A DNA stretch of 64,000 nucleotides from an uncultured Actinomycetota bacterium (GTDB lineage Bacteria; Actinomycetota; Actinomycetes; Mycobacteriales; CADCTP01): NCBI GenBank assembly GCA_963714145.1, contig OY970235.1:6737722-6801721 (forward strand), given 5' to 3'. A program made the translations under genes and the position numbers. The notes below the pieces were generated by a model. It was not told the DNA's origin. It saw only the letters and a program-made list of their open reading frames with translations, and ran no database searches. Each line of letters starts with the position of its first letter. The first letter of the stretch is position 1. Positions 18,378-36,262 of the stretch are shown here, in pieces.

Positions 18378-18378
18378 C

Positions 18379-19659: not shown

Positions 19660-19670
19660 GGGGCGGCTCC

Positions 19671-19898: not shown

Positions 19899-20144
19899 GG
19901 CGAGCCTTTCGAGGCGGGGTTTGGGTGGGCCGGCGGCGGGGCCGAGCGGGCGGGAGAACGCCGGATCGGTCCGGGCGGAGGTCGAGGACTGGGCCGCGGT
20001 CGGCGACCGGTGGCGGGCCTCTGGGGGATCCCTGTACGGGCCATAGAGCGCCGTTCTCGGGCCGGCCGGTGTGAGGGACCGGGGCGGCGGCCGAGGCCGT
20101 CACGGCGGGGCGCCGCACAGAACTCGCGGAACCCACAGAAGGGG

Positions 20145-21722: not shown

Positions 21723-22930
21723 GCTGCGGCCTGGCCGGGACGGCGCGGCCGGCGGCCACCGGCACGCAGCCCGGACCGGATGGTGCTGGCCGCCTCGGCC
21801 TGGCCCAGCCCGATCCCGACGGCAGCCTGTTCCAGCTCGGCCGTGACGAGGTCGGCGGGCAGAGCGCCACCGGCGACGAGCTGGCCGAGGGCTACCGCGG
21901 CGGTGAACAGGATGCGGTTGCGGCGTCCCTCCGGCGCGGCGGCGACCACGGCGACCTCGCGGGCGACTGCGGCCCGCAGGTACGCGGGCAGCCGGCCGGC
22001 CGCCGGAGCGGGCGCCGCGGGCCGGGGTCGCGCAGCCGGTGCGGTGAGGCGGCCGGCGAGCCAGTCGGGCAGTGGCGCGGCTGGCTGGTCGAGCGCGACC
22101 GTGTACGGACGTCCGTCCACTGTGGAGCCGGAGCCCACGACGTAGCCGCCGTGGCCGCGGGTGTCGACCAGCCAGCCGAGCGCGCCCGCCGTGTTGCCCA
22201 GTCGCGTGCCGGCCGGGGCGGTGAAGTACAGGTGGGTTCCGCCCCGTCCGGTGTGGACGGTGTGGGTGGCGGCCGGGAACGGCTGCCCGGCCTGCTCGGC
22301 AAGGGCCGCGAGGACGTCGGAGCCGTCGTGCACTCCGTCGAGTCGCCACGGCTCCGGCGGGCCGTCATCGGTCTTCGGCTGGTCGAGGTCGACCACGAGC
22401 AGGCCGGACGGTCCACATGCGACTCCGATGCCGTAGCGGCGGGTCGACCAGGCACGGCGGATGCGGTCGCGGTCAGTGGTGGCGCGTGGTTCCCAGCCGG
22501 TGTGACCGTCCCGGCACCAGGGATCGGCGCGGGTGCAGCGGTCGGCGGTGTGGTCGGGGAACGCGGGCCGCTTCGCGTCGGGCCGCAGCGGGAATACGCG
22601 CCAGCCGCGGCCGGCGGCGGCGAGCGCGGCGGCCAGGGCCGGCGCGGTGTGCGGAATGTCGGCTGGCGCGTGCCGGCCAGCCGGCGGCGGCCCGGCCTCG
22701 ACCAGGCCGGCCGCCGTCCAGCCGGCGAGGAAGGCGAGTGCCCCGCCGCGGGTGATCCGCGCGGCTTCGGCGAGGCTGGCGGCGGTGACCGGGCCGCCGT
22801 CGAGGTCGACCAGCGCTCGCCAGGCGCGGTCACGAAGGACGCTCGCGTCACGCTGGGTGTTCGGCGTCGAGGGTCGGTTAGCGGTGCCGGGGCGGGGGGT
22901 CATGACGCCTCCTGAGCCTGTTTCGGGCAT
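21719..22930 (-). CDS. bifunctional DNA primase/polymerase (Prim-Pol), AICE replication protein
   Basis: RGWRVFPLRPDAKRPAF...YGIGVACGPSGLLVVDLD...GGTHLYF...VDTRGHGGYVVGSGS matches the archaeo-eukaryotic primase-like prim-pol N-terminal domain. The start could be 22930 or the GTG at 22903. Confidence 0.8.
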   Translation of the reverse strand: MPETGSGGVMTPRPGTANRPSTPNTQRDASVLRDRAWRALVDLDGGPVTAASLAEAARITRGGALAFLAGWTAAGLVEAGPPPAGRHAPADIPHTAPALAAALAAAGRGWRVFPLRPDAKRPAFPDHTADRCTRADPWCRDGHTGWEPRATTDRDRIRRAWSTRRYGIGVACGPSGLLVVDLDQPKTDDGPPEPWRLDGVHDGSDVLAALAEQAGQPFPAATHTVHTGRGGTHLYFTAPAGTRLGNTAGALGWLVDTRGHGGYVVGSGSTVDGRPYTVALDQPAAPLPDWLAGRLTAPAARPRPAAPAPAAGRLPAYLRAAVAREVAVVAAAPEGRRNRILFTAAVALGQLVAGGALPADLVTAELEQAAVGIGLGQAEAASTIRSGLRAGGRRPRRPGQAAA

Positions 22931-22942
22931 GGGTCAGGTAGG

Positions 22943-23031
22943 GGCGCTAGCGCGCTAGCGTCCTGGCCAGTCGGGTTGTTGAGGGCTAGCGGGGGCGCTA
23001 GGTCTAGCGGGGGCAGGGGCTAGACCTAGCG
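22943..23031. repeat. cluster of CTAG-centred repeats (GCTAGCG x3, GCTAGGTCTAGC / GCTAGACCTAGC inverted pair)
   Basis: Read directly in the 111-bp gap between the tra stop (23042) and the prim-pol start (22930). Confidence 0.8.
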
Positions 23032-23041
23032 GCGCCCGCGG

Positions 23042-25204
23042 TCAGCCGGCGCGCCTGCGGCGGTCACGTTCGGCGACGGCGGCGGCGACGTCCTCGCGGT
23101 GGATGCCCTTGCGGTTGGCGCCCTTGCCGGTGGTCGGGTCGGTGCCCCAGACCTGCCGGCCGGTGGTGACGGCGTGCGGGCGCAGCGCGGCGGCGAGCTG
23201 TTCGGGGCGCCAGCCGAGGTAGACGACCGGGCGCAGCTCGGCGAGCCGTTCGACCACGGTCTCCGACCAGATCTTGCCCTCGGTCACCGGGACCACGGTC
23301 AGGATGTCGTCCAGCAGCGAGGCCGCGGCGAGGTCGGCGGCCTGCTCCGGCTCCTGGCCGAGCGCGTGCCCGGACAGCGTGCCGGCCTGCTCCCGCATGA
23401 CTCGGGCGCGGGCGATGACGCGCTCGGCGGCCGGGCCGTCGATGTAGTAGGAGCGGGTGATCCGCGGGTCGTCGCCTTCCCCGGCGAGGTAGCCGATGCC
23501 GAGGTCCTTGCGGCTGAACGTGGTCGCGCGGATGCCGTTCTTGTAGGCCGAGGTGCCGAGCACCATGTCGTTGGAGAGCTGGCCCATGACCTTGAGGCAG
23601 AACCGGAGGACGGCGTTGTCGGAGATGCCGGTCGGCAGTGACTTCGCGTCCGGCCGCTGGGTGGCGAACATCGGGATGATGCCGGCGGCCGGGCCGCGCC
23701 GGACGAGGTCTTCGGCGATGGCGACCAGCTCGTCCCCGTAGGTCGGGTGCTCGAACCAGCGCTGGCACTCGTCCACCACGATGACGATCGGGTGCAGCCG
23801 GTACGCCTTCATGCCGGCCAGCTCTGGCGTGATCTTGTTCTCCGGGCAGAGGTGGCGCGGTAGGCCGCGGATCACCTTTGCCCGTCGGCGTAGTTCGGCT
23901 TGCAGCTCGCGCATGTCGGCGAGCGCGTAGGCGATGTCCTCGTCCTCGTCGCCGGACCGGTAGCGGTGCGACACCGGCTCCAATGTGGACAGGTCGCCGG
24001 TGCCTTTCAGCTCGTACGGGTGCAGCTCGGCGCGCGGGTCGAGCGCGGCGGCCAGCAGCGCGAGCCGGACGGCGAACGTCTTGCCCATCCGCGGGACCGA
24101 GCCGAACACCATCGAGGCGAACATCAACAGCAGCGTCACCGGCCGGCCACGCTGGTCGGTGCCGAACGGGATCGGCTGGAACAGGTCGGTGCGGCCCGCC
24201 TTGAGCAGCGGCCAGGCCGGCTGCTTGGTCTGCGCCATGTCCCGGTCACCCACCCACAGGACCAGCCGACCCGCGTGCGCCTCGGTCACCGGCTCCGGCC
24301 ACACGCAGCCCAGCGGACGGCGTAGCCCGGATGCGAGCTTCTCCCGCCGCTCGGCGACATCGCCAACCGTTACCCCGTAAGGGAGATCGACCTCGGCGCG
24401 CCATCCGGGGCCGTCGCGGGTGATCGGCGACGGGAACGTGATCCCGCCTCCGCCCTTGGCAAGCGCCTGGTTGATGCCAGCCAGGCCGAGCGAGCCCAGC
24501 GCCCGGACCACCACGTCGGCGGTCAGCCTCGGCGGTGCCGTGGTGACGACGGCCGGGCCGATCAGCGGCCGGTCCTGCCGCCGGCCGGCAGCGCCCAACA
24601 GCGCGACCGTGCCGGCGACGACGGCGGCATTGAGCCATCCGGGCGCGAGCGTCCACAGCGTGAGCGCGGTCGTCGTGGCGACGAGCAGTCCAAAGAGGAC
24701 TGTTCCAATCCGGGTCCGCACGCGCTCGTCCCGACGGCGCAGCAGGGCCATGTAGTCGCGCGGTTCGCCGCGCCAGGCCGAGTCACGGCGCAGCCCGGCC
24801 GACTCCGCGTCGACAGTCCACCGGGCCAGCGCGACGGTTGCTCGGCCGAGGCCGCGCGGCGACTGCCCGGCGAGCTGGGCGCAGTACAGCGGTACCCGTA
24901 CCGCGTGGAACGCCATGGTGTGCCCGGCCCGGTTGGCTGCCCACCGGGCCGCGGCCTTCCGGGTGGCGCGGTCGGTCAGCCACTGCGGCAGCACTGGCCG
25001 GCGCTCGGTCGGTCGCTCCCAGGCCGGCCCGAGGGTCGATGCCGGCAGCGGTTCGGGGTCGACCGGGACGGGCGGGGCGTCCTCGTCGCCCGGGTTGTCG
25101 ACGTCAGCCGGTTCTGCGGCCGGGCGGAAGCGGAGCACGTCGGCCGGCTCCTGGTCGGGCTGGTCGGCGCCGTCGTCATCGACCGGCATCGGGTTCTCGG
25201 TCAT
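23042..25204 (-). CDS. FtsK/SpoIIIE-family conjugal DNA translocase (TraSA/TraB-like)
   Basis: 720 aa. N-terminal TM helices, Walker A GSVPRMGKTF, Walker B IVIVVDECQ. It is the only large transfer ATPase in the element, as in Streptomyces-type dsDNA transfer. Confidence 0.88.
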   Translation of the reverse strand: MTENPMPVDDDGADQPDQEPADVLRFRPAAEPADVDNPGDEDAPPVPVDPEPLPASTLGPAWERPTERRPVLPQWLTDRATRKAAARWAANRAGHTMAFHAVRVPLYCAQLAGQSPRGLGRATVALARWTVDAESAGLRRDSAWRGEPRDYMALLRRRDERVRTRIGTVLFGLLVATTTALTLWTLAPGWLNAAVVAGTVALLGAAGRRQDRPLIGPAVVTTAPPRLTADVVVRALGSLGLAGINQALAKGGGGITFPSPITRDGPGWRAEVDLPYGVTVGDVAERREKLASGLRRPLGCVWPEPVTEAHAGRLVLWVGDRDMAQTKQPAWPLLKAGRTDLFQPIPFGTDQRGRPVTLLLMFASMVFGSVPRMGKTFAVRLALLAAALDPRAELHPYELKGTGDLSTLEPVSHRYRSGDEDEDIAYALADMRELQAELRRRAKVIRGLPRHLCPENKITPELAGMKAYRLHPIVIVVDECQRWFEHPTYGDELVAIAEDLVRRGPAAGIIPMFATQRPDAKSLPTGISDNAVLRFCLKVMGQLSNDMVLGTSAYKNGIRATTFSRKDLGIGYLAGEGDDPRITRSYYIDGPAAERVIARARVMREQAGTLSGHALGQEPEQAADLAAASLLDDILTVVPVTEGKIWSETVVERLAELRPVVYLGWRPEQLAAALRPHAVTTGRQVWGTDPTTGKGANRKGIHREDVAAAVAERDRRRRAG

Positions 25205-25222
25205 CGTTGGTCTCCTTCCGGG

Positions 25223-26023
25223 TCAGGCGGCGACCGGAGCCGGCTCGGCCGGCTGGTCCTGGTCGGTGGTCGGGGCGGTGCGGAGCAGGCCGGCGGCGGC
25301 GAGCAGTCGGCGGGCGCGGTCCGGGCCGCAGCGGGCAGCGGCGGTCGCGCGGCGGATCGGCACCGTGCCGTCCGGCTCCCGCGGCAGCGCTGCCAGTACG
25401 GCGGTCAGCTCGGCATCGGTACGGCCGGCGGTACGGGTACCGGTACGGCCTGGCCGGCGGGTACCGGTACGGCCGGCGGTACGCGGTCGGCGGGGCGTCG
25501 CCGGTGCGGTCCGCTCCCCCGGTTCGGCCGGCTCCGCGGGCGGCTCGACGACAGCCTCGACCGCGGCGGCGAGCGCGGCCCGGGCGGCCGAGGCGATCAG
25601 CGCGCCGGAGGCCATGACCATGAGCCCGTCGACCGCCAGCGGGCCGATGACTGCGGTGAGCGGGTCTTCCCGGTAGTGGGTCAGCAGGCCGGACAGGTGC
25701 CGGTACGACACCACGGCGGCGACCAGCGCGACGGGCAGCAGCCCGACGTACCGCAGCGCCACCCACCGGCGGCCGGCCGGCCACGCGGTCCGGGCGACGA
25801 TCTCGACCACCACGAACAGCGCCACCGGCCAGAACACGGCACCGATCACGGCTCCCGGCTCCGGCGCCCAGCCAGCGGCGGCCGGCGGCAGTCCGGCCGG
25901 CGGCACGAAGGAGTGCGCCACGTTGGCTGCGATCGACACGGCTCCGCCGAGGCCGGCACCGGCGTACGCCCAGCCGCGGCCCCGGCCGGCTCGGCTCGTC
26001 GTCGCCCTGGTCGTCGTGCTCAT
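25223..26023 (-). CDS. DUF2637/SpdA-like membrane protein (spread function candidate)
   Basis: ATG at 26023 (MSTTTRATTSRAG...) makes an ATGA overlap with the upstream stop. Four hydrophobic helices, then a Pro/Thr/Arg-rich tandemly repeated linker (RTAGRTGTRRPGRTGTRTAGRT). Confidence 0.6.
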   Translation of the reverse strand: MSTTTRATTSRAGRGRGWAYAGAGLGGAVSIAANVAHSFVPPAGLPPAAAGWAPEPGAVIGAVFWPVALFVVVEIVARTAWPAGRRWVALRYVGLLPVALVAAVVSYRHLSGLLTHYREDPLTAVIGPLAVDGLMVMASGALIASAARAALAAAVEAVVEPPAEPAEPGERTAPATPRRPRTAGRTGTRRPGRTGTRTAGRTDAELTAVLAALPREPDGTVPIRRATAAARCGPDRARRLLAAAGLLRTAPTTDQDQPAEPAPVAA

Positions 26024-26436
26024 GCCGCATCTCCGATCTGGTCGGGCGCGCCGGGTTCGTCGGCGCAGTCGAGGCACTCGCCGAGCGAGCGCGGGATCAC
26101 GTAGCTGGCGACCCGCCCGCAGGTCGGGCAGGTGCGGCGAGCCGAATCGGCCTTCGCCAACGCGATGAGCTGGGCCACGGTCGGCTCGCGGCGGGGCGCG
26201 GCCAGCTCGACCCGGTACAGCAGCGCGAACCGGGTCCGGGACTGCCGCCGCGGTGAGTACCGGCGCGACGTCCAGCAGACCTGCCCAGCCGCCGGCTGCC
26301 CGGCGGGCCGCAGACCTGCGGCAGCGAGCTGGCGACGGGTCATCAACCCGTCCGGCGCCATCCGCCAGGGCCACGTTGGCAGCCCGCCATGCCGGGTGCC
26401 CTCCGGGTCGTGGTGCGCCCGGTAACCGCGGCTCAC
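26020..26436 (-). CDS. RRQRL-motif-like zinc-ribbon protein common in AICEs
   Basis: GTG at 26436 makes a GTGA overlap. GLPTWPWRMAPDGLMTRRQLAAAGLRPAGQ... followed by CPTCG..(x19)..CLDC. Family name recalled from memory. Confidence 0.55.
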   Translation of the reverse strand: MSRGYRAHHDPEGTRHGGLPTWPWRMAPDGLMTRRQLAAAGLRPAGQPAAGQVCWTSRRYSPRRQSRTRFALLYRVELAAPRREPTVAQLIALAKADSARRTCPTCGRVASYVIPRSLGECLDCADEPGAPDQIGDAA

Positions 26437-26966
26437 CGCTGGCCCCCGACCGCCGGCAGGACCGCCCGGACGAGCGCGCGGACGGCGGCGTCGCGGGTGT
26501 GGAAGCCGTCGCCGTGCCCGGCGGCATCGCCCCACGTTCCCCACCGGAATCGGAGCGCGCCACGGTCGGTCCAGGTCCGTTCGACCAGGCCGAGCACGTT
26601 GCCGTCCCGGTCGGTGGCGAGCCATTGGTAGGCGTCCTCGGCCCGCCCATACAGCCACGCTTCGACGTGCACCAGCGTCCGGCCGACCCGCTCGGGCGGT
26701 ACCGAGGCCGGGTACCTGCGGGTGCCCGAGGTCGAGACGGCCAGGGCCGGCCGGTGCTCGGCCGGGACGTCGCGGGCGGTGTCGTAGCCGTGCGCGCCGG
26801 GGTCGTCGGTGGCCGGCGTCCACGCGGCCAGCTCGATGACCTGCCGGCAGGTCCAGCAGATCAGCTCGACCCGGCGGGGCCGCTGGTCGGCGAACACCGG
26901 CTGGTCGATCAGCGCCGACCAGCCCCGGCACGCAGCGTCGCGATGCTCGACGAGAGTCAGGCTCAT
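26433..26966 (-). CDS. hypothetical protein
   Basis: 177 aa. ATG at 26966 makes an ATGA overlap with the GGDEF gene stop. No motif recognised. Confidence 0.5.
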   Translation of the reverse strand: MSLTLVEHRDAACRGWSALIDQPVFADQRPRRVELICWTCRQVIELAAWTPATDDPGAHGYDTARDVPAEHRPALAVSTSGTRRYPASVPPERVGRTLVHVEAWLYGRAEDAYQWLATDRDGNVLGLVERTWTDRGALRFRWGTWGDAAGHGDGFHTRDAAVRALVRAVLPAVGGQR

Positions 26967-27688
26967 GCCGCACCGCCGACCCGGCGAGCGCCGGCCACCG
27001 GCGCTACTGCGGTGTCGCGCAGCCGGCCGGCGGGGCGCCGTGGCGGCGGGACCTGCGCCGGCTCCTGGTCGAGGTCGGGCGCGACCCGCAGCCCGCCCCC
27101 GCCGCCCTTGGCCGCGTACATCGCCACATCCGCGGCGGCCAGTGCGGCAGCCAACCCGGCCGCCGGCACGACAGCAGCGCACGGCACCGTCGCGGCACCG
27201 ACGGACGCGCCGACCGCCAACTCGACCCCACCGACCACGTACGGGGCGGCCAGGGCCGCGCTCACCCGCTCGGCGACGGCCAGCGCCGCAGCTACGGCGG
27301 CGTCCGGGTCGGCCGGCAGCCCGGGCAGCAGGACGACGAACTCGTCCCCACCGAGCCGGGCGACCGTCACCCCCGGCCGGCCGGCTGCCGACAGCCGCCG
27401 GCCTACGGCGGACAACACCTCGTCGCCCGCGGCGTGCCCGTAGCGGTCGTTGACCGGCTTGAACCGGTCCAGGTCGACCAGCAGCACGCCCACGCGGCCG
27501 GCCCGGCCGGGGCCGAACACCTCGTCCGCCGCGGCGGACAGCCCGACCCGGTTGGCCACCCCGGTCAGCGCATCCGTACGCGCGGCCCGGCCGGCGGCAG
27601 CCGCGCGCCGGACAACCGGCCACCGGCCAGCCACCCAGCCCAGCACCGGACCAGCAGCCACAGCCGCGTACGCGGCGACGGCCGTCAT
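26963..27688 (-). CDS. GGDEF-domain diguanylate cyclase (one N-terminal hydrophobic helix, no sensor domain)
   Basis: TDALTGVANR, LLVDLDRFKPVNDRYGHAAGDEVL, ARLGGDEFVVLL, ADVAMYAAK. The metal and substrate motifs are intact. No RxxD I-site was seen upstream of GGDEF. Confidence 0.88.
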   Translation of the reverse strand: MTAVAAYAAVAAGPVLGWVAGRWPVVRRAAAAGRAARTDALTGVANRVGLSAAADEVFGPGRAGRVGVLLVDLDRFKPVNDRYGHAAGDEVLSAVGRRLSAAGRPGVTVARLGGDEFVVLLPGLPADPDAAVAAALAVAERVSAALAAPYVVGGVELAVGASVGAATVPCAAVVPAAGLAAALAAADVAMYAAKGGGGGLRVAPDLDQEPAQVPPPRRPAGRLRDTAVAPVAGARRVGGAA

Positions 27689-27996
27689 GCCGCACCGCCC
27701 AACGTCTGCCCGCCGGCCGGGTCGCCGACGGTGAATGTCGGGCGCGGGTCCGGGTCGGGCGACACGAGCGCAGTGGGCCGGCCGCCGTGCATCAGGTCGT
27801 CATGGGTGCCGGCGAGCTGGCCGGCCTCGGCCGGCGGGAACGGGCCGGCGTGCAGCTCGCAGGCCGGGCAGTCGAGCACCACGAGCCGCGCCGGCCGCAG
27901 CGCCGGGCGGGGCATCACGTAGCCGGCGGCGAACCGGGGCGCCGGGTCGGCGCGTCGGGTCTGGGCGGGTGGTGGCGTGCGGAAGCGGGCAGCCAT
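27685..27996 (-). CDS. hypothetical protein
   Basis: ATG at 27996 (MAARFRTPPP...) with AAGGAAAGG upstream. Its stop overlaps the GGDEF start (ATGA). Contains a CPAC pair. Confidence 0.45.
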   Translation of the reverse strand: MAARFRTPPPAQTRRADPAPRFAAGYVMPRPALRPARLVVLDCPACELHAGPFPPAEAGQLAGTHDDLMHGGRPTALVSPDPDPRPTFTVGDPAGGQTLGGAA

Positions 27997-28104
27997 GATG
28001 GGCGCGCCTTTCCTTGGTGGGAGCCAGGAGGGGTGTTGTCGGGCCGCCCGTGTCTTCAGCACGGGCGGCCCCCAAGCGGAGGGCCGGAGCGCGGTCGCGG
28101 CGGC

Positions 28105-28320
28105 TCAGTTGCTGGCCTGCTGGAGCAGGCTGACCACGAGGTCGGTGACCCAACTGATCAGCGCGACGAGCATCCCGGCGACCTTCGCCATCGCGGCCTT
28201 CCAGGACTCCGGGTCGTTCCGCGCCCACATGACGAGGCCGACCAGGACGCCGAACAGGACCACGACCTTGATGGCGCCGGTCAGCGCGTGCACCGCGCCG
28301 CCGACCATCTTTTCGATCAT
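28105..28320 (-). CDS. small two-TM membrane protein
   Basis: 71 aa with two clear hydrophobic helices. Confidence 0.5.
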   Translation of the reverse strand: MIEKMVGGAVHALTGAIKVVVLFGVLVGLVMWARNDPESWKAAMAKVAGMLVALISWVTDLVVSLLQQASN

Positions 28321-28398
28321 GAAAGTGCCTTCCTCGCGGCCAGGCTCGTCCCGGCCCGCGGCGCCACCTCCGGACCTCCCCGGCGATGACGCGGCGGG

Positions 28399-28704
28399 TC
28401 AGGCCGCCGGCCGCTCGCGGTCCGCCCGCCGCGCCGACCGGCGCTCCTCGGCGCTGAGCCCACCGACCACGCCATGCGTGAGCAGCGGCCCGAACGTCGC
28501 CAGGCACAGCGCCGTCACCGGGCACGCCGCACAGACCGCCTTCGCCACGTCCGGCGACTGGCCCTTCTCCGGGAAGAACACCTCGGGGTCGACCTGCGAG
28601 CACAACGCCGACTCCCACACCTGCCGCACCGCGTCCGCATGCGTGCGGACCGCCGGGAACAGCGCCGCCGCGGCGGCCACCGCCCGTCCGTTCACTGCCG
28701 TCAT
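28399..28704 (-). CDS. WhiB-family transcriptional regulator
   Basis: C-x(n)-C-x2-C-x5-C cysteine pattern (ALCSQVDPEVFFPEKG...AKAVCAACPVTALCL) followed by GVVGG and a basic tail. Confidence 0.85.
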   Translation of the reverse strand: MTAVNGRAVAAAAALFPAVRTHADAVRQVWESALCSQVDPEVFFPEKGQSPDVAKAVCAACPVTALCLATFGPLLTHGVVGGLSAEERRSARRADRERPAA

Positions 28705-28725
28705 GACTCGACCCTTCGTCCCGTT

Positions 28726-28797
28726 GATCTAGATTGACCTAGGCTAACCTAGGTCAATCTAGATCACAATGATGCCGATGCCGATGACCTAGGTCAT
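28726..28797. promoter_or_regulatory. operator-like palindromes in the divergent whiB / gntR intergenic region
   Basis: Perfect 18-4-18 palindrome GATCTAGATTGACCTAGG-ctaa-CCTAGGTCAATCTAGATC at 28726-28765. A second site, ATGACCTAGGTCAT at 28784-28797, shares the core TGACCTAGGTCA. Confidence 0.7.
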
Positions 28798-28810
28798 CTA
28801 CTGTTCAGAG

Positions 28811-29182
28811 GTGGCCGTGACCCCCAACGACCCCCGACCGCCCTACCTCCAGGTCGCCGACGACCTGCGGGCCGCCATCACATCCGGCCGGTACGCGCCG
28901 GGCGAGCGGCTGCCCTCCGGCCGGGACCTCGCCCGCGAGTACGGCGTCGCCCTGATGACGATGCAGCGCGCGCTGAGCGCCCTGGCCGAGGAGGGCCACG
29001 TCGCGCTCTACAAGAGCCGCGGCGCCTTCGTCCGCTCGGCCGAGCCCGGCGACGGCGCCGAGACTCGGCCGACCCTCGCCGGCCTGGCCCGGGAGGTAAG
29101 CGACCTCCGCGCGACCGTCCAGGCTCTCGAAGGGCGGCTCGACCAGCTCGAACGACCCAAGCGCGGCCGGTCCGGTGCCTGA
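28811..29182 (+). CDS. GntR-family transcriptional regulator (KorSA-like)
   Basis: PPYLQVADDLRAAITSGRYAPGERLPSGRDLAREYGVALMTMQRALSALAEEGHV is a GntR wHTH. Short coiled C-terminal tail. Confidence 0.85.
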   Translation: MAVTPNDPRPPYLQVADDLRAAITSGRYAPGERLPSGRDLAREYGVALMTMQRALSALAEEGHVALYKSRGAFVRSAEPGDGAETRPTLAGLAREVSDLRATVQALEGRLDQLERPKRGRSGA

Positions 29183-29314
29183 CTGCCCGATCATGTCGTT
29201 CCGCCTCCCTGTCCCGGCTGCTGTGCTGGGAGCCAGTGAAGTCGGGATCGGGGCCGTCCGTGATGACCTGGCAGTGCACCCGCAGTGCACTCGGCTCGCG
29301 GAGGGGAGGCAGCC

Positions 29315-30880
29315 GTGGATGTCGTCGACACCTGGACCGGCCGGCACGCGACCGCGCTACGCCGGGCGCTGCGCCTGACGAACGAGGCACTGGCCGAGGA
29401 GCTGGGCACCGCCGTGCGCACGGTTGCCAAGTGGAACGCCGATCCCGACCTCGTCCCGGTCCCGGACATGCAACGAGCGCTCGACACGGTGCTCAGCCGG
29501 GCGCCGGAGCCAGCCCGTGCCCGGTTCACGCTGCTTCTCGCGGCCGACCTGCCAGCCTCCGCCCCGCCGGTGACCGAGGCGGCGGCGGCCGAGCTGGCCG
29601 GCGACGACAGCAGCGCCGCCGCCGCGCTCGCCTGGGTCGACCAGGCCGCCGGCTGGCAGCCGGAGACGGCGTCGCGGCTGCTGGCCGAGCGCGCGGCATT
29701 GACCGACCGTCGGCGCATCCGGCAGGTTGCCGCCGCGCGTGCCCGGGTCGGCCGTGACGACCTGGCCGCCGCGCTCGCCGCGTACTACGGCACCGACGAC
29801 GAGCACGGCGTCTACCGGGGCGTCTGCGCCGGGCAACGGCTGACCACCAGCGTCCTGACCCGGCCGTCCTGGCTCGACCTGCGGCTCCCGCTCGGTGCTG
29901 GCCGGGAACACCTACGCCTGTCGCCCGGGCCGGCCGCGCCGATCGCCGTCGACCAGCTCGGCGCCGCCGCGGCGGTCGACCGCATCGCCACCGGCCTGCA
30001 AGCCGACCTGCGCATGGTCAACGCGCCCATCTACTCCCTGACCGACGTGACCGTGTCGGCCGGCGGCATCGCCGGCATGGTCAGCCTGGCCGGCTTCTTC
30101 GACTACGCCCTCACCCTCGACCTGCTCGAAGCCGAGCTGACGGACGCGATCGGCGCTGGCCTGCCACCGGCACGCGGACACCTGCCACTGCGCGACCGCT
30201 ACCTACCCGACCTCGCCAGCGTGCTCAACGTCGCCGGCCGGCTCTGCGCCGGCGGCCCGCCCGCCCTCTGCGCCATCGCCCGGCCCGCCACCCGCAACCG
30301 CGGCCCGGACTACCTCCTGCTCATCCAAGAGCGCTCCGGCCGGGTCCTCAACTCCGCCCGCCGGCTCGCGGTCATCCCGAAGTCGTTCCACGGGCCGCTC
30401 GTCGACTACGCCGAAGACGCACAGATTCACCGCTCGGTCGAACGCGAGATGGAAGAGGAACTGTTCGGCCGGGACGACGTCGACTCGGTCCTGTCCGGCC
30501 AGCGCAGCGCCGACCCGATGCACCGAAGCCGCCTGTCCGTCCCGATGCGGTCGCTGATGGACCGGCCCGACGACGGTTCCTGGCGGATGGAGTGCACCGG
30601 CTACGGCTACAACCTCCTGACCGGAAACTACGAATTCGCCACCCTCATAGCTGTCCACGACGAGACCTGGTGGGCCGAGTACGGCGGCCACATCGAAGCC
30701 AACTGGGAATCCGCCAGCCTCCGCCGCTACTCCACCCGCGACCGCGACGCCATCACCGCACTAGCCTTCGACCCAGCCTGGAGCAACGAAGGACTCTTCG
30801 CCCTCCTCCAAGGACTACGCCGCCTCGCCGAGATCGACAGCGACCGCACCGACCTACCTGCAATCGACTGGGAGACCTGA
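29315..30880 (+). CDS. XRE-type HTH protein with C-terminal Nudix-like region (Pif-like)
   Basis: GTG at 29315 is preceded by GGAGGGGAGG. N-terminal HTH LRLTNEALAEELGTAVRTVAKWN. The C-terminal SVEREMEEELFG resembles, but does not exactly fit, the Nudix box REUxEExGU. Confidence 0.55.
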   Translation: MDVVDTWTGRHATALRRALRLTNEALAEELGTAVRTVAKWNADPDLVPVPDMQRALDTVLSRAPEPARARFTLLLAADLPASAPPVTEAAAAELAGDDSSAAAALAWVDQAAGWQPETASRLLAERAALTDRRRIRQVAAARARVGRDDLAAALAAYYGTDDEHGVYRGVCAGQRLTTSVLTRPSWLDLRLPLGAGREHLRLSPGPAAPIAVDQLGAAAAVDRIATGLQADLRMVNAPIYSLTDVTVSAGGIAGMVSLAGFFDYALTLDLLEAELTDAIGAGLPPARGHLPLRDRYLPDLASVLNVAGRLCAGGPPALCAIARPATRNRGPDYLLLIQERSGRVLNSARRLAVIPKSFHGPLVDYAEDAQIHRSVEREMEEELFGRDDVDSVLSGQRSADPMHRSRLSVPMRSLMDRPDDGSWRMECTGYGYNLLTGNYEFATLIAVHDETWWAEYGGHIEANWESASLRRYSTRDRDAITALAFDPAWSNEGLFALLQGLRRLAEIDSDRTDLPAIDWET

Positions 30881-30881
30881 T

Positions 30882-31238
30882 ATGGCAGACAACTGGTACC
30901 AGGGCAACGCCGCCGCCGAGAACGACCAGCACCGCGGCTGGTTGCTCGGCCACTTCATCGACGGCGAGGACGCCACCATTCGCAAGACCAACGCCCTCGA
31001 AGTCAAATGGGGAATCCACAAGGCCGGCGAGGAACGCCCCGAATGGACCACCGGCGAAGACCGCACAACCCTCTTCATGCTCATCAGCGGCAAGTGGCGC
31101 CTAGACCTCACCGTCGGCACCTTCACCCTTGACCGCCCCGGCGACTATATCGTCTGGGGACCCGGCATCGACCACTCCTGGCAAGCCCAGGCCGACAGTA
31201 CCGTCCTAACTATCCGCTGGCCTTCGAGCCAACTGTAA
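30882..31238 (+). CDS. small cupin-like protein
   Basis: 118 aa starting 2 nt after the preceding stop. A beta-rich sequence with G.Y...GPG..H.W; cupin assignment from pattern only. Confidence 0.45.
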   Translation: MADNWYQGNAAAENDQHRGWLLGHFIDGEDATIRKTNALEVKWGIHKAGEERPEWTTGEDRTTLFMLISGKWRLDLTVGTFTLDRPGDYIVWGPGIDHSWQAQADSTVLTIRWPSSQL

Positions 31239-31330
31239 CGCAGCGTGGACGACAGAACTACTGACATGTCAGCCAATGAACACACATCAGAGGTCCGGCG
31301 AGGTAATTGCGCTTCGCTATGAAGACTGAC

Positions 31331-32575
31331 CTACTGTCCGCCATGCGACACGACATAAGGAGGCCGCGCTTGGGTTCGGCCATACGGGTAGCGATCCGCG
31401 ACCGTTGACAGATACCGATCGACCGCTTCGATGTCTCGGAAGTGCTCGTGCTTATAGTTCGGAAAGTTGTCCACTCGCGGCTTCTTTGTAACACTCAGTC
31501 GAACATCCTGAAACGGAATGGGATCTGAAGGCAGTGGCCCCGCACCGGAGAGAACGAGGCACATCACCTGCTGGGCGTCGGTTCGTGTTGTCAAATTGTA
31601 TATTCGATGCATCCCATCAATTATCACCAATGTACCATCGGGCTGCCGTTCAACAATTGGCGGCAGAACCACCGTGCGATTGCCGCTGCCCTCAACTCGA
31701 CACGGCTCAAAGAACTCTAATCCGAACCGTTCATATCCCTCAAGGAGAGGGGAACCCTTAGCAACGTTCGCGGCCTTTACGGTGCGACAACATGAGTATA
31801 GCGACGCACAAGAAACCATTTCGATAGAGATCGAATTTGTAGTCAAGCGACTGTAGTGCGGAATTCGCGACAGAATATGACGGACTTCGTCCGCATCCAA
31901 TACCAAGCGATCCAAGATCACTCCCGGCGGGAGAGTCTCCCAGACTGAATCGAAAAGCTGGTGCAACATGGCGATGTAGCTCATGTCCCGCCCAGGGAGG
32001 TAGCGGCGAGCATGATAGTCAAATAGGCTGTCCGTGCCGGCCTCTCCTTCAATTAGAGCAATGCGCTGCTTCGGGTGCTTGGTCACGGTAAGCGCAGTTC
32101 CATTGTCAAGGCTAGTCTTCGTGTCGACGACCAGACCCCGCAGCTTTACCATATCTCCGGTGTAGTACTTCACCTGCACGCCGGCCCCGAAAAGAACCCG
32201 AACCTGCTCTAGCAGAATAGGCGTAGAAGGCCACCTACAAAGAACGCGAATTACTACCCCTAGCTGAGTCCGCTCAAGAATCGGATTCTTACTACTCTCC
32301 GCCCAGGAAACATCACCGGCAAAGACCGCCACGGATGAATCCGCCCGGGTGAGGAGCGCGCGCCAAGCCAAGTCGACCGTTCGCTTGCCGTTAAACACGT
32401 TTGCGTCACGGTGGAAAATCTGCACGAAGACCAGCACAGCAAAGGCCGCGAAAGAAATACCGATAAGCAGATAGGACACGGTCGACTGAACGTTGACCAA
32501 CTTGTCAAAAGACATTCCAGTAATACCGATAACAATGCTCGCCCATTGGATGATGTTGGCAACCTTACGGGTCAT
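31331..32575 (-). CDS. low-GC cargo protein: N-terminal 2 TM helices, unassigned central domain, C-terminal ParB/Srx-like (DGxHR) domain
   Basis: ATG at 32575 (MTRKVANIIQW...) with GGAAGG upstream; the track ORF allows a start at 32668. TM helices IIQWASIVIGITGMSF and VSYLLIGISFAAFAVLVFVQIF. C-terminal PPIVERQPDGTLVIIDGMHRIYNL. Composition is clearly A/T-richer than everything around it. Confidence 0.7.
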   Translation of the reverse strand: MTRKVANIIQWASIVIGITGMSFDKLVNVQSTVSYLLIGISFAAFAVLVFVQIFHRDANVFNGKRTVDLAWRALLTRADSSVAVFAGDVSWAESSKNPILERTQLGVVIRVLCRWPSTPILLEQVRVLFGAGVQVKYYTGDMVKLRGLVVDTKTSLDNGTALTVTKHPKQRIALIEGEAGTDSLFDYHARRYLPGRDMSYIAMLHQLFDSVWETLPPGVILDRLVLDADEVRHILSRIPHYSRLTTNSISIEMVSCASLYSCCRTVKAANVAKGSPLLEGYERFGLEFFEPCRVEGSGNRTVVLPPIVERQPDGTLVIIDGMHRIYNLTTRTDAQQVMCLVLSGAGPLPSDPIPFQDVRLSVTKKPRVDNFPNYKHEHFRDIEAVDRYLSTVADRYPYGRTQARPPYVVSHGGQ

Positions 32576-32919
32576 CAGCCTTCCACTTCTCAGCATGCCA
32601 TGAACCAGCCCAAGCCAGGATTCACCCTCATCAAGGTGATCGAACCGAACCCCCGTTCGCCGCCACACCCTTGGACCTGGGTGACTCTAGCGTCAGTTCT
32701 GCTACCTCGTCGGTCGCCCTCACCTGATCAGCCCGAGCGATGGGGGGATCGTCGGCGTCTCCAACGCTGCTCGCCTGCCACCTACGCCACACCTCGTCGG
32801 CCGGTCCGTCTCAGTTCCCGTCTCGTTCGTCTCAGTCCACTGGCGGCCGGACAGGACCGCGGTTGGCCGGCCAGCGCTTGCCAGCACGAGACGGACCGCC
32901 ACGGACGGCGCGGAGCAGA

Positions 32920-32979
32920 CTTGGAAAGCGTGTTGGGGGCAACCCCTCAAGAGTTCGAATCTCTTATCCTCCGCGTCTC
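32920..32979 (+). repeat. attR core (exact 60-bp copy of the tRNA-Ser(GGA) 3' part; no tRNA 5' half)
   Basis: Identical to 16348-16407. Confidence 0.85.
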
Positions 32980-33279
32980 CGATCAGGCACGATGCTCAAT
33001 CCTTGGACCGCTGCGATCCTTGGAGCGCGAGCCCGTCTCAGTTGAGCCGACGGCACACCAGCAGTCTCGACGTGCTCGGCACTCGTGACCCGCGGGCGTC
33101 ACGGCCGGCTAGCGGCGGTGTCGGTGGCGGGCCGATGACCTGCCGCCGAGTGCCAGCGTCCGGTCGTCGCCGTCGACTGGTGCTCCACCCGGCCGCTCTA
33201 TCCCGGTTTGCGAGGTTGTGCTGGCGGCCCGGCGCGGCCGGGCTGTCGTCAGCGCGAGCCGGTGAGGCATCCTGGGTGG

Positions 33280-33597
33280 GTGAGTCGGTATGCGGAGGCG
33301 AAGCCATACGCGGTGCCGAGGTCGCTGTCCGACCTGACCGGGCCGACTGGCGGCACCGTCGTGCTGCCCCGACACATCGATTGGGGCCCCGCATATGTGT
33401 ACGACCTCGCAGATGAGTCAGATCTGGCTCTTCTCTACGAGCGGGTGATCCGGGAGGCCCAGACCCCTGATGATCTCACCGCCTTCCTGGACGGGGCGAC
33501 GCTGCGCCGGCTGTGGCCCACGCTGATCGTTCCCCGGCCGGCCCGCGCCAGGTGGGAGGCACGTTTCGAGGAACTGGCCCACCAAGCGGTCGCGTAG
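33280..33597 (+). CDS. putative antitoxin partner of the AbiEii-like nucleotidyltransferase
   Basis: GTG at 33280 (VSRYAEAKPYAVPRSL...). Its TAG stop overlaps the GTG of the downstream gene (TAGTG). No domain recognised; the call is by position only. Confidence 0.4.
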   Translation: MSRYAEAKPYAVPRSLSDLTGPTGGTVVLPRHIDWGPAYVYDLADESDLALLYERVIREAQTPDDLTAFLDGATLRRLWPTLIVPRPARARWEARFEELAHQAVA

Positions 33598-34253
33598 TGG
33601 ACGAGTTCCATCAACGCCTGATCCGGATCGGCTTGGACGCACTGGCCGTTGACGACGGCTACGCGCTGGCCGGCGGCTACGCCGTCCAGGCACACCACTT
33701 CATCGACCGCCTCAGCGACGACGTTGACCTGTTCGTGCCCATAGAACGCAAGCATGAGATGCCGACCGCGACTGCTCGAATCATCGCAGCATACGACCAG
33801 GCCGGGCTTCGGGCGCAGATTCGCCAGCACGCCGATACCTATGTACGCCTCGATGTCACCGATCCGGCGATCGGCCGTACCGTCAAGGTCGAACTCGTCG
33901 CAGAATTCCTCATGAATCCACCCGTCCCGTCCGATCTCGGCCCCGTCCTGCACCCAGACGACGTTGCCGCTGGAAAGCTTGAAGCGCTGTTCACCCGCGC
34001 CGAGGTCCGTGATTTCATCGACGTGGACGCCCTACTGCGGGGCGGATACAACCGGAGCCAGCTCATCGAGCTGGCTAAACGGCGCGACGCGGGCTTCGAT
34101 GAATCAGTCCTCGCGGACATGTTTGCGAGCCTGTACCGTCTCAACGATCGCCAGTTCGCCGTCTACGGGATAGACGCAGCCGCCATCCAGGAGATCCGCG
34201 ACCAATTCAAGAGCTGGCAACAAGATATCCGCGACCGACTCAAGAACAGTTGA
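33597..34253 (+). CDS. nucleotidyltransferase AbiEii/AbiGii-family toxin (DUF1814)
   Basis: 218 aa. ALAGGYAVQAHHFIDRLSDDVDLFV (NTase G..(x)n..DxD) and the C-terminal helical region are typical of type IV TA toxins. Confidence 0.75.
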   Translation: MDEFHQRLIRIGLDALAVDDGYALAGGYAVQAHHFIDRLSDDVDLFVPIERKHEMPTATARIIAAYDQAGLRAQIRQHADTYVRLDVTDPAIGRTVKVELVAEFLMNPPVPSDLGPVLHPDDVAAGKLEALFTRAEVRDFIDVDALLRGGYNRSQLIELAKRRDAGFDESVLADMFASLYRLNDRQFAVYGIDAAAIQEIRDQFKSWQQDIRDRLKNS

Positions 34254-34424
34254 CGACCAGCCATCGCTCCTGCGGCGATGCGGAGTGCGGGCGCGAGCGG
34301 CAACCGCGTGCGTCTCGTTTGCCGTCTTGTTCACGGCCGTTCAGACGGGTGCCGGCGGGTACGTCCGGGGCGCCGCAACGAACCAACGGGCCCAGCCGAA
34401 CCGGGCGGAACGGACACCGGCAGA

Positions 34425-34482
34425 CTTGGAAAGCGTGTTGGGGGCAACCCCTCAAGAGCTCGAATCTCTTTTCCCCGCTCCC
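34425..34482 (+). repeat. decayed third copy of the tRNA-Ser(GGA) 3' part
   Basis: cttggaaagcgtgttgggggcaacccctcaagagCtcgaatctcttTtccCcgc; a few substitutions relative to 16348-16407. Confidence 0.8.
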
Positions 34483-34566: not shown

Positions 34567-34782
34567 GTGACGCAGATTGATCTTGATGACGACGCGCTCA
34601 GCGAAGCGATGCGGCTCTCCGGCGCGAAGAGCAAGAAGGAGACGGTGAATCTCGCACTGCGGGAGTACTCCGCTCGGCACCGCCGCATCGCGGCACTTGA
34701 TCACTACGCCACTGTCGCCAAGGGCTGGGACTACGAGGGCTGGCGGGAGTTGCGAGGCGAGGGCAAGGCACCCATTGCGTGA
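34567..34782 (+). CDS. vapB: type II antitoxin, VapB-like (DUF2191 type)
   Basis: 71 aa. TQIDLDDDALSEAMRLSGAKSKKETVNLALREY is the typical pattern. Overlaps the downstream PIN gene. Confidence 0.75.
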   Translation: MTQIDLDDDALSEAMRLSGAKSKKETVNLALREYSARHRRIAALDHYATVAKGWDYEGWRELRGEGKAPIA

Positions 34783-35201
34783 TGCATTACCTGGCCGACT
34801 CGTCGGCCCTCTGGCGTGTTTTGCGCGACCCCGACGTACGGGCTGGCTGGAATGAGGTGATCTCCAGCCACGCGATCGGGTCGTGCCAGCCGCAGCGCAC
34901 CGAGTTTCGCCGCTCAGCTCGCAATCTCGACGAGTACGAGCAGATGACCGCGATGTTTGTCGATCTGTACCCCGATTTCCCGGTGCCGAACGCGGCCTGG
35001 CAGTGGGTCGAGTCGGCCCAGTACCGACTACTGCGGGTTGGGGCGCACCGAGCGCTGTCCTGTGTGGATCTGCTCGCCTGCGCCTGTGCGGCCATCCGGG
35101 GACTCGTGATTCTGCATGACGACAATGACTTCGTCGTGGCCGTGCAGCACCTGCCGGATCTCGCCGAGCGGCGGATACAAGCGCTCCCCGGGTCCGCATG
35201 A
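34779..35201 (+). CDS. vapC: PIN-domain toxin VapC
   Basis: YLADSSALWRV (first acidic residue), E at about position 43, and C-terminal ILHDDNDF. GTGATG overlap with vapB. Confidence 0.8.
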   Translation: MMHYLADSSALWRVLRDPDVRAGWNEVISSHAIGSCQPQRTEFRRSARNLDEYEQMTAMFVDLYPDFPVPNAAWQWVESAQYRLLRVGAHRALSCVDLLACACAAIRGLVILHDDNDFVVAVQHLPDLAERRIQALPGSA

Positions 35202-35290
35202 CCTGCACGACCGCGGGCGCCGGCGTGACGAGCCCGGCGCGCCACCACTAGCCAACTCGATGCCCGCTCGTGCAGTCCGCGCGGTCCCGC

Positions 35291-35325
35291 CTGCTCCGCT
35301 CCCTGACCAGGACAAACGCGGGCGG
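35291..35325 (+). repeat. possible further att/tRNA-trailer remnant
   Basis: ctgctccgctccctgaccaggacaaacgcgggcgg versus atcctccgcgtctctgaccagggcaaacgccggcc at 16394-16428; about 27 of 32 positions by eye. Confidence 0.45.
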
Positions 35326-35450
35326 CGGCTGCCCGCCCACCCGGCGTTCAGGCTGTTCGTCATTTCGGCCGCCTCGGTCTCAGCTCGGCCTCGTGTGATC
35401 CGGTCGGCGAGGTCCGTCCGCCTGGCTCGGCCGCGACTACACTGCACTAC

Positions 35451-35873
35451 ATGTCATCCCCACTGTCGATCAGGTTCGACCCGGCGCTGTTGGCTCGACT
35501 GCGGCGACGGGCGGAGGCGGCGGCCGGCGGCAGTGTGTCGACGCTGGCGCAGACGCTGATCGATGAAGGACTGCGGATGGCCGAGCACCCGGGGATCGTC
35601 TTCAAGTCAGGGCCGAGCGGCCGGCGGGCAGCGCTGTCGAACGGCCCCGATGTCTGGGAGATGATCAAGTTCCTGCATGAGATCGATGAGCGTGGCCAAG
35701 CAGCGGTGGCCGCCGCGGCCGAGGTGTTCGGTCTGCCCGAGGCCCGGGTGCGCACAGCGATGAGGTACTACACCGACTACGACGCCGATATCGAGGGTGA
35801 GATCGCGCTCGCCGACGCCGAGTCGGCTGCGGCCGAGGCCGCCTGGATCACCGAGCAGCGCCTGCTCGCGTGA
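35451..35873 (+). CDS. DUF433-like antitoxin candidate
   Basis: 140 aa with an RHH-like N-terminus and GIVFKSGPSGRRAALSNGPDVWEMI. Its stop overlaps the downstream gene. Confidence 0.55.
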   Translation: MSSPLSIRFDPALLARLRRRAEAAAGGSVSTLAQTLIDEGLRMAEHPGIVFKSGPSGRRAALSNGPDVWEMIKFLHEIDERGQAAVAAAAEVFGLPEARVRTAMRYYTDYDADIEGEIALADAESAAAEAAWITEQRLLA

Positions 35874-36262
35874 CGCCACCGTCGGACCCGATCACCGTCC
35901 CGCTCCTACTGGATGAGATGTTTGCCCCGATCGTCGCAGAAGCCCTGCGAGACAAGGGTTATGACGTTATCGCGATCGTGGCCGACTCCGGTCTACGAGC
36001 GCTGAGCGATGACGAGGTGTATGCCTGGGCAGCTGCCCAGCGACGGTGCCTCGTCACCGAGAACGTGAAGGATTTCCGGCCCATCCTCACCCGCGCTGAG
36101 GAAGCCGGCAGCCCGGTCGCCGCCCTGTTGTTCACCAGCAGCCGCACCTTCCCCCGCAGCCGGCGCAACCCGGGGCCCCTCATCGACGCCTTGGACACCT
36201 GGCTTCGAGCGGCCGGCCCGACGCCGGCGAGCGTGGAGCAGTGGCTACAGCCCGGAAAATAG
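35870..36262 (+). CDS. DUF5615 / Mut7-C PIN-like toxin candidate
   Basis: 130 aa. LLLDEMFAPIVAEALRDKGYDVIAI...LVTENVKDF. The usual partner of DUF433 proteins. Confidence 0.55.
   Translation: MTPPSDPITVPLLLDEMFAPIVAEALRDKGYDVIAIVADSGLRALSDDEVYAWAAAQRRCLVTENVKDFRPILTRAEEAGSPVAALLFTSSRTFPRSRRNPGPLIDALDTWLRAAGPTPASVEQWLQPGK

Follow-up and report, generated by a model that had tools for sequence, protein, structure and literature searches.

The ParB-superfamily domain DUF262 is described as the sensor of the GmrSD and SspE antiphage systems, and DUF262-type domains of defense systems more generally as nucleoside triphosphate (NTP)-dependent sensors that control a fused effector (PMC12065111). Two-transmembrane (2TM), TIR, patatin and deaminase-type heads, in turn, are effector domains of CBASS (cyclic-oligonucleotide-based antiphage signaling), Pycsar (pyrimidine cyclase system for antiphage resistance) and Thoeris-type systems and are joined to a sensor there. 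Closest to the subject of this study are two Pfam families, iHKD (PF24402) and ParB-CE (PF24392), which we take to be computationally defined conflict-system domains from the work of Nicastro, Burroughs, Iyer and Aravind (NAR 2023). Here we analyze a gene that carries both, in a stretch of 64,000 nucleotides (nt), hereafter the window, on contig OY970235.1 of an uncultured Actinomycetota bacterium (assembly GCA_963714145.1, positions 6,737,722 to 6,801,721). The gene (31331-32575 in window coordinates, minus strand, stop codon counted in) encodes a protein of 414 amino acids (aa) and lies at one end of an actinomycete integrative and conjugative element (AICE).

By its iHKD profile, and at the family level also by ParB-CE, where it is itself 0.3 bits short of the cutoff, the protein is a member of the computationally predicted iHKD + ParB-CE conflict family. 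It has the same two domains in the same order as the Pfam proteins of this kind, and the same mobile or conflict-type contexts; nothing categorical differs, the present case being a 2TM-headed actinomycete member on an AICE. A first-pass annotation of this DNA had regarded the architecture as not belonging to a described system, but at the domain level it is not undescribed: iHKD and ParB-CE are both Pfam families and UniRef names one homologue 'Inactive HKD-Rease domain-containing', so both domains are already catalogued. In the literature searched, 'ParB-CE' was not found in the domain sense, nor was 'iHKD' found in that sense among its own top-ranked matches, and the architecture goes unmentioned in a survey of ParB-CTPases (PMC12704722), in the Dnd, BREX and Menshen analyses and in two preprints on 'modularity'. 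What is new in the present analysis is the modularity of the family, that is, a constant iHKD + ParB-CE cassette with a swapped N-terminal slot, together with split forms.

Based on sequence and structure models, we suggest that the 414-aa protein is a stand-alone conflict protein of the abortive-infection type, acting against phages or mobile elements, in which a nucleotide-gated cassette would fire a membrane hairpin; we give this reading a probability of roughly 0.45. A defense or conflict role as such had been put forward in the first-pass annotation, and it is the best-supported reading of the slot swapping, the location at mobile-element ends and the defense-type neighbors.

The make-up of the family carries this suggestion. 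A word-indexed search returned 15 close relatives (full-length identity 34-62%; where named, from Lentzea, Streptomyces and Actinomadura), the alignment of which holds 48 invariant columns, and an exhaustive profile search gave 853 cluster representatives (46 reach E<=1e-30), with the three domains of the protein conserved across phyla. Local domain hidden Markov models show iHKD and ParB traveling jointly as a cassette, while the N-terminus changes. The transmembrane (TM) hairpin is carried by a class of relatives of ~390-450 aa; when 62 long relatives were scanned with Pfam, the region outside the cassette held a patatin domain in 31, a CAP12/Pycsar-type TIR domain in seven, a cytidine/dCMP deaminase in seven, and DUF4145 or a weak adenylate/guanylate cyclase-domain match in one each. 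In one relative of 496 aa the hairpin is replaced by a cytidine/dCMP deaminase. Weak, sub-threshold matches hint at a nucleoside-deoxyribosyltransferase-like domain in one shorter relative (P0117, 328 aa) and at a C-terminal CHAT-like domain in another protein (P0031). The hairpin thus shares its slot with TIR, patatin and deaminase effectors, which suggests that it is itself the effector and that the iHKD + ParB-CE cassette is its constant partner.

The same modules also occur in split form. In two loci (L008 and L010), a gene for TIR + iHKD overlaps a separate ParB-CE gene by 4 nt, and in a further split form a 2TM + iHKD gene is followed by an overlapping gene; that iHKD stays with the effector when the protein is divided fits an adaptor role. 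A stand-alone ParB-CE gene without iHKD (177 aa, 24.6 bits) was seen in a Planctomycetes bacterium (CP087563.1; locus L019, 9169-13423). It lies in a low-GC (guanine plus cytosine) run of overlapping genes, behind a Pol-beta/NTP_transf_2 nucleotidyltransferase gene; three proteins without Pfam matches come after it, and a TraG/TraD-like gene is near; for this domain it is a setting of another, multi-gene kind. No plasmid or phage homologue was found by tblastn against PLSDB and INPHARED or by a pattern scan of IMG/VR, at the sensitivity used, and BFVD gave single-domain fold matches alone.

The C-terminal ParB-CE domain (residues 225-395; 31391-31903, on the minus strand like all features of the gene) consists of an N-terminal beta/alpha extension and a ParB/sulfiredoxin (Srx) core with the motifs PPIVE (31649-31663) and DGMHR (31604-31618). 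The C-terminal tail that follows (residues 396-414; 31334-31390) is unconserved, and its AlphaFold2 (AF2) confidence is below 50 from residue 400. On the protein itself the Pfam ParB-CE profile scores 22.6-22.7 bits against a cutoff of 23; at E<=1 it matches 13 of the 15 close homologues (best 8.3e-8). Several close homologues attain the cutoff, and so do the relatives P0040 (30.9 bits) and P0064 (28.5 bits). A separate model of residues 225-414 reached a predicted local distance difference test score (pLDDT) of 89.4. Its top 35 Foldseek matches in the PDB are all of the ParB/Srx fold, several of them nucleotide-bound, and the structural matches include Atu1540, SbnI/SerK, Noc, PadC, ParB-CDP and Srx-ATP; a profile of the domain searched against PDB sequences retrieved SbnI alone, aligned on viDGvHR. 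Near-invariant residues of the protein fall mostly in this domain (P305, P306, E309, D320, G321, H323, R324, P349 and R380), and E309, G321 and R324 are invariant even across divergent relatives; the motif itself varies as DG[M/T/I/N/A/L/H/V]HR. As modeled, the domain is a ParB/Srx fold with a phosphate-binding loop of the G-x-x-R type.

Pfam and Foldseek assign the middle domain (residues 61-224; 31904-32395) to the inactive HKD or phospholipase D (PLD) fold. The iHKD profile ('Inactive HKD-REase') matches residues 91-210 (31946-32305) with 53.3-53.6 bits against a cutoff of 27 (E 2.9e-14), and it matches 14 of the 15 close homologues. Foldseek relates the domain to TrmBL2 (best E-value), Nuc (TM-score 0.75 on the target), Zucchini, NucT, FAM83, PLD3 and MITD1 in the PDB. 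In the family alignment the HKD motif is degenerate (K144-L-R146-G-L-V-V-D151; 32123-32146): HxK(x)4D reads x-x-R146-(x)4-D151, with the His position variable, the Lys changed to an invariant Arg and the Asp kept. The middle domain lacks any invariant His, and the GSxN of HKD enzymes has become G-T-A-L-T in the 414-aa protein. An active HKD/PLD phosphodiesterase or nuclease, which would carry the catalytic motif HxK(x)4D(x)6GSxN with its His, was rejected on these grounds. As judged from alignment and model, the middle domain is a catalytically dead PLD fold, and since the nucleophilic His is absent it resembles non-catalytic ligand-binding or adaptor domains of this fold more than nucleases.

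The whole-protein AF2 model, built with 15 homologues, has a pLDDT of 84.8 and a predicted TM-score (pTM) of 0.73; behind two long N-terminal helices come a middle domain of mixed alpha/beta structure and an alpha/beta domain at the C-terminus. AF2 secondary structure and hydropathy delimit a helical hairpin at residues 1-56 (32408-32575), in which helix 1 (residues 2-26, IIQWASIVIGITGMSF) is moderately hydrophobic (Kyte-Doolittle hydropathy 1.0-1.1) and helix 2 (residues 31-54) is a strong TM segment (2.1-2.3). Basic residues on either side of the hairpin fit an N-in/C-in topology, and it is likely, but not certain, that the hairpin is 2TM. A PADLOC '2TM effector' match is weak, generic and non-significant (E 0.029). 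SLATT_6, too, matches weakly and without significance, in one of 15 members (E 0.3; 11 bits, where the cutoff is 27), and SLATT membership was rejected on this basis.

On the build of the protein, the first-pass annotation proved largely right. The motifs that it quoted from the translation are all present; its two N-terminal hydrophobic helices correspond to the AF2 hairpin, its central domain without HKD, and thus not an active PLD, to the iHKD domain, and its ParB/Srx reading of the C-terminal DGxHR agrees with Foldseek. Its description of the whole as a membrane-anchored ParB-like NTPase or nuclease effector stands in part: there is a membrane hairpin and a ParB-like domain, but the hairpin, being in the effector slot, is probably no mere anchor, and no nuclease evidence was found for the 414-aa protein.

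In the mechanism that we envisage, the cytoplasmic iHKD + ParB-CE cassette would be the constant regulatory core and the N-terminal hairpin the effector, placed in the slot that TIR, patatin or deaminase domains fill in the relatives. The ParB/Srx domain would bind, and probably hydrolyze, a nucleoside triphosphate via the PPIVE, DGxHR and FR residues, and the dead PLD-fold domain would link cassette and effector, serving as an adaptor or as a platform for dimerization or ligand binding. On a trigger, the cassette would self-associate in a nucleotide-dependent way, much as ParB-type switches do, upon which the hairpins would oligomerize in the membrane and membrane integrity would be lost before the invader finishes its cycle. 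We picture the cassette as a nucleotide-gated switch because ParB-fold domains bind NTPs and self-associate on binding, and because the DUF262 sensors provide a precedent. Also in favor of a conflict protein, the other end of the AICE bears an Mrr-type nuclease, and AbiEii and VapB are encoded just outside attR, the right attachment site of the element.

Several points speak against this reading. In the literature we found no experimental work on any iHKD + ParB-CE family member. PADLOC (PADLOC-DB v2), a check that the first-pass annotation had proposed, returned the generic 2TM match mentioned above and no system-level match; such a match was also absent in NCBIfam, which was wholly empty. 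Helix 1 of the hairpin is just moderately hydrophobic, and profile searches gave no significant similarity of the hairpin to SLATT or other known 2TM effectors. Context was tallied locus by locus, and several of the loci are mutually related, not independent; five (L006, L011, L012, L015 and L016) are not shown to be mobile. The name of the C-terminal domain also matters here: according to a later preprint by the same authors, the 'CE' of the names given by Nicastro et al. 2023 stands for conflict effector, and those who defined ParB-CE apparently regard it as an effector, not a sensor. The same preprint validates a sister prediction, Calcineurin-CE, by experiment as a nucleotide-depleting effector acting on deoxynucleoside triphosphates (dNTPs).

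These last points lead to an alternative in which ParB-CE would itself be the catalytic effector, or one of two, and would degrade free NTPs or dNTPs. The protein would still be a defense protein, with the roles reversed: iHKD would sense invader-derived nucleic acid or nucleotide, and the hairpin would merely localize the protein or add a second, independent insult. We regard this as possible, if on balance doubtful. The Pfam name 'ParB CE' implies a conflict effector and the validation of Calcineurin-CE makes the alternative credible; moreover, conservation in the protein is highest at a set of ParB-CE residues that resembles an enzyme's (E309, D320, G321, H323, R324 and R380), and the closest solved relatives include true enzymes (the SbnI/SerK kinases and Srx). 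In the planctomycete locus, ParB-CE without iHKD is found in what would be the 'effector position', behind a Pol-beta-type nucleotidyltransferase that could make a signal. In ParB, on the other hand, the Glu of the GERR box is important for CTP hydrolysis, and it is this residue that is variable in the DGxHR of the family. The reversed assignment also gives no reason why a second effector, lethal and well known (TIR, patatin, deaminase or 2TM), should be fused so systematically, and it runs counter to the sensor role described for DUF262, a domain of the same superfamily, in GmrSD and SspE (PMC12065111).

The genomic context bears both on our preferred reading, that of an abortive-infection protein with a nucleotide-gated cassette, and on the idea that the protein serves the AICE. 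The 3' ~62 nt of a tRNA-Ser (16347-16408) are duplicated exactly at 32919-32980, and the gene starts ~340 nt inside the resulting attR, in agreement with the first-pass annotation, which had described it as single-gene cargo at the attR end of an AICE. That homologues recur at the ends of such elements, a check that had been suggested together with this, was likewise found: at least three AICE-like elements besides that of the window (L001, L013 and L017) have one at an end, and in six further loci a tRNA is 0.3-1.7 kb away. In Streptomyces rhizosphaericola (L001), the homologue is inside an AICE with KilB, DUF2637, GGDEF, NUDIX and GntR genes, directly after a PycTM-domain gene and 280 nt from a tRNA-Ser. 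Two Streptomyces loci (L013 and L017) have the order Prim-Pol, AAA_25, Xis, integrase, homologue, tRNA-Arg, with a backbone akin to that of the window's AICE. The homologue in S. peucetius (L005) adjoins an AICE-like block of GntR, DUF2637, GGDEF and methylase genes, and three actinomycete homologues (L006, L007 and L014) have a tRNA 0.8-1.7 kb away. Outside the actinomycetes, an Anaerolineales homologue (L018) lies in a low-GC islet beside a tyrosine recombinase. On a metagenome contig (L003), transposases (IS110, rve and IS1595) stand on both sides of the deaminase form. In the window's AICE the gene is int-distal, in L017 int-proximal, and such a location at different ends in different AICEs is the pattern of cargo, not of backbone. 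No partner gene is conserved across the loci: p118 and the other neighbors were checked as candidate partners, antitoxins and cyclases.

It is in this light that a service to the AICE has to be considered. The protein could be a membrane-located exclusion, fertility-inhibition or incompatibility factor that keeps competing conjugative DNA from entering or becoming established, acting like the ParB/Srx-fold protein Osa or complementing the Pif/KorSA transfer control of the element. Streptomyces-type conjugation moves double-stranded DNA through a membrane FtsK-like pore, for which a membrane location would be apt, and the position at AICE ends in the window, L001, L013 and L017 and beside the AICE-like block in L005 would be as expected; ParB/Srx proteins with a role in conjugative-plasmid conflict are also on record (Maindola et al. 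2014, as reported in a paper citing it). We nevertheless find such a role improbable, and the exclusion factor of the first-pass annotation is disfavored, because relatives occur outside conjugative elements, in contexts without AICE genes (Anaerolineales, the insertion sequence-flanked deaminase form, and the Actinomadura and Lentzea loci). The gene moreover occupies differing AICE ends, variants with TIR, patatin or deaminase heads suggest outputs that kill the cell, and Osa is missing from the top 50 structural matches of the C-terminal domain. That the gene is an inert or decaying passenger without current function, or that its product is a metabolic or regulatory protein at the membrane with no part in conflict, is very unlikely, in that its atypical codon usage with one TTA codon, an upstream region in which a consensus promoter was not found and the lack of functional annotation in NCBIfam and public homologue records are set against an intact frame, full-length homologue alignment with 48 invariant columns at 34-62% identity, conservation of all three domains across phyla and a confident AF2 model (pLDDT 84.8, pTM 0.73).

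The gene itself is set apart from its surroundings by composition. Its GC content is 53.9% (0.539) versus 0.720 for the whole window, close to what the first-pass annotation had estimated by eye (50-55% against more than 70%); among windows of 1245 nt (mean 0.719, standard deviation 0.044) it is the global minimum, ~4.1 standard deviations low. GC at third codon positions is 0.60 versus 0.83-0.93 in neighboring AICE genes, and codons ending in A or T, correctly seen to be many, make up 40% versus 8-17% in the AICE backbone genes. The low-GC patch (~31200-32700) consists of the single gene and its flanks, and no convincing bracketing repeats that would be the signature of an insertion were found around it. 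A recent foreign origin, as had been read from the codon endings, is not shown by this. GC is lower than in the flanks in every actinomycete locus (0.47-0.62 versus 0.67-0.72), and since actinomycete homologues are ~60% identical yet also low-GC, low GC looks like a stable family trait.

The longest frame in the open reading frame (ORF) list (31331-32668, 445 aa) opens with GTG. The true start is the ATG at 32575, because GGAAGG lies 4 nt upstream, the homologue N-termini align there, and the public gene call is 414 aa long; this call (P0001) is an identical protein, and in the family alignment all homologues open at the equivalent Met. The reading frame is intact and homologues align over its full length. 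Between the gene start and the attR core lies an upstream region of 339 nt (32576-32914, minus strand), where the promoter is presumed to be. Promoter and terminator scans found no sigma-70 consensus site in this region, their consensus matches being solely intragenic and at chance level, and no Rfam match to an RNA element was found there or nearby. The gene holds one TTA (Leu) codon, at 31718-31720 (codon 286), a codon absent from the six neighboring genes checked. Translation of TTA in Streptomyces-like hosts needs the developmentally regulated bldA tRNA, and expression of the gene might thus be growth-phase dependent.

The element that carries the gene is an AICE of the pSAM2 type. We looked for the features of this class, which are att repeats flanking a tRNA, a tyrosine integrase with Xis, a Prim-Pol-type Rep, an FtsK/TraB-like transfer protein, and GntR (KorSA-like) and Nudix (Pif-like) regulators. 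The tRNA-Ser(gga) with the attL core is at 16317-16408 (plus strand; the tRNA itself 16317-16402) and attR, a copy of its 3' part, at 32915-32980 (plus strand); the AICE body between them (16409-32914) makes a 16.6 kb element inserted at tRNA-Ser. From left to right it encodes a Mrr_cat restriction-endonuclease-domain protein of 272 aa (16563-17381, plus strand; E 1.2e-12), a DUF6650 protein (17823-18377, plus strand), the tyrosine integrase (18379-19659), an HTH_17 Xis-like protein (19671-19898), Prim-Pol (21719-22930), a 720-aa protein with Walker A-like and Walker B-like motifs and no Pfam match (23042-25204), a 241-aa GGDEF protein with the GGDEF motif intact at residue 113 (26963-27688, minus strand), a GntR regulator (28811-29182) and a 531-aa protein with a partial Nudix box of REMEEE core (29285-30880). 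From these motifs, the 720-aa protein would be TraB and the 531-aa protein Pif. The backbone proteins recur in the Streptomyces elements L001, L013 and L017. Cargo of lower GC (0.64-0.66) is found at the attL, int-proximal end too, namely the Mrr_cat and DUF6650 genes, and the AICE bears accessory, defense-like genes at both att-proximal ends.

Some further observations concern the element and its surroundings. A 27-nt motif (GGTCCGTCTCAGTTCCCGTCTC...) is present in copies that are 93% identical at 16460-16486 and 32803-32829, both inside the element, the first ~58 nt from the attL core, the second ~86 nt from that of attR. The motif contains a short internal repeat (32804-32815 and 32825-32836), and its right copy falls within the stretch upstream of the cargo gene. 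Both copies are candidates for the arm-type sites of attP that the integrase binds. The GGDEF gene, for an enzyme of the diguanylate-cyclase type, has counterparts in L001 (2647-3291) and L005 (19044-19694), and tblastn matched it in L013 and L017 as well; it is kept in the related Streptomyces elements, adjoins a DUF2637 gene and is missing from loci without an AICE. In L001, the PycTM-domain protein (181 aa) and a 303-aa protein without Pfam match are encoded directly upstream of the homologue (8274-9802), and this pair may be Pycsar-like, which would give a two-system defense cargo block inside that AICE.

Conflict genes are plentiful around the att sites of the window. Beyond attR, a third, imperfect att copy lies 1.5 kb away (34420-34474). 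Between the second and third copies is an AbiEii toxin gene (33513-34253; Pfam E 2e-16), overlapped from upstream by an ORF (33208-33597) that is a possible partner; the stretch 32981-34474 looks like a tandemly integrated remnant or a mini-island at the same att site. Outside the att array, a VapB antitoxin gene (E 1e-15) and an overlapping ORF of 140 aa occupy 34567-35201, the latter presumably the toxin, though it has no Pfam match. With a second overlapping gene pair at 35451-36262, the downstream member of which is DUF5615 (E 1e-12), the region 34567-36262 looks like a toxin-antitoxin cluster. A second tRNA-Ser (cga) at 45282-45369 is followed by a dip in GC to 0.634 (46001-47000), and this region may be another integration hotspot.

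If the protein does protect against phage, a family known so far from Pfam domain models alone would be put on an experimental basis. As a single gene for 414 aa it is a compact candidate with clear targets for mutation, namely W91, R146 and D151 (iHKD) and E309, D320, H323 and R324 (ParB-CE), next to removal of residues 1-56. The question that it poses is whether a ParB-fold domain in immunity is an NTP-gated switch for swappable effectors or a nucleotide-destroying enzyme. AICEs, best known for their transfer functions, would be documented with defense cargo at both att-proximal ends, which bears on how industrial Streptomyces and related producers resist phages. Tentatively, and aware that this goes further than we would bet on, we speculate that iHKD + ParB-CE could be a new class of nucleotide-gated receptor, equivalent to SAVED, CARF, STING or cyclic nucleotide monophosphate (cNMP)-binding domains. 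Working with no dedicated cyclase, it would read ordinary nucleotides altered by infection, or phage-modified ones, and fire interchangeable effectors through NTP-driven self-association, as a one-gene immunity spread by AICEs.

The known systems resemble the protein each in a different part. With the HKD/PLD nucleases (Nuc, NucT, Zucchini, BfiI and SauUSI) it shares the PLD fold, but the nucleophilic His is missing here, and iHKD resembles instead non-catalytic PLD-fold domains that act in ligand binding or as adaptors (TrmB/TrmBL2, FAM83 and MITD1). With the CTPase clamps ParB, Noc and KorB it shares the fold of the N-terminal domain (~95-100 aligned positions at 2.7-4.5 Å to Noc and ParB-CDP), but unlike canonical ParB it has no helix-turn-helix (HTH) DNA-binding domain, no C-terminal dimerization domain and no ParA/parS context. 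A canonical ParB clamp was accordingly rejected: DGxHR stands in place of the GERR(xR) box, there is no HTH or ParBc Pfam match, and no parA gene is nearby. The DUF262-type proteins (GmrSD, SspE, BrxU, DndB and Menshen NsnA) have in common with it the ParB/Srx fold and a D-G-x-[HQ]-R phosphate-binding motif in an immune protein; they combine these with an HNH/DUF1524 nuclease or a DNA-binding domain, whereas here a dead PLD domain and a membrane hairpin are found. Membership of DUF262 itself was rejected, as there is no Pfam match at E<=1 and, of the motifs QRxxxW, DGxQR and FxxxN that define it (PMC12065111), the first and third were not seen and motif II alone is approximated, by DGMHR.

The closest parallel in overall design is with the effectors of CBASS and Pycsar (2TM-SAVED, TIR-SAVED/STING, the patatin CapV, PycTM and PycTIR), where an interchangeable lethal head is likewise combined with a constant nucleotide-binding module. 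The constant module here is iHKD + ParB/Srx and not SAVED, STING, CARF or a cNMP-binding domain. The protein is not a member of either system, there being no SAVED, STING or cNMP domain and no linked CD-NTase or cyclase, with a PycTM neighbor in L001 only. By analogy, we suggest that it would work most like a CBASS or Pycsar effector-sensor fusion, with another sensor and no cyclase.

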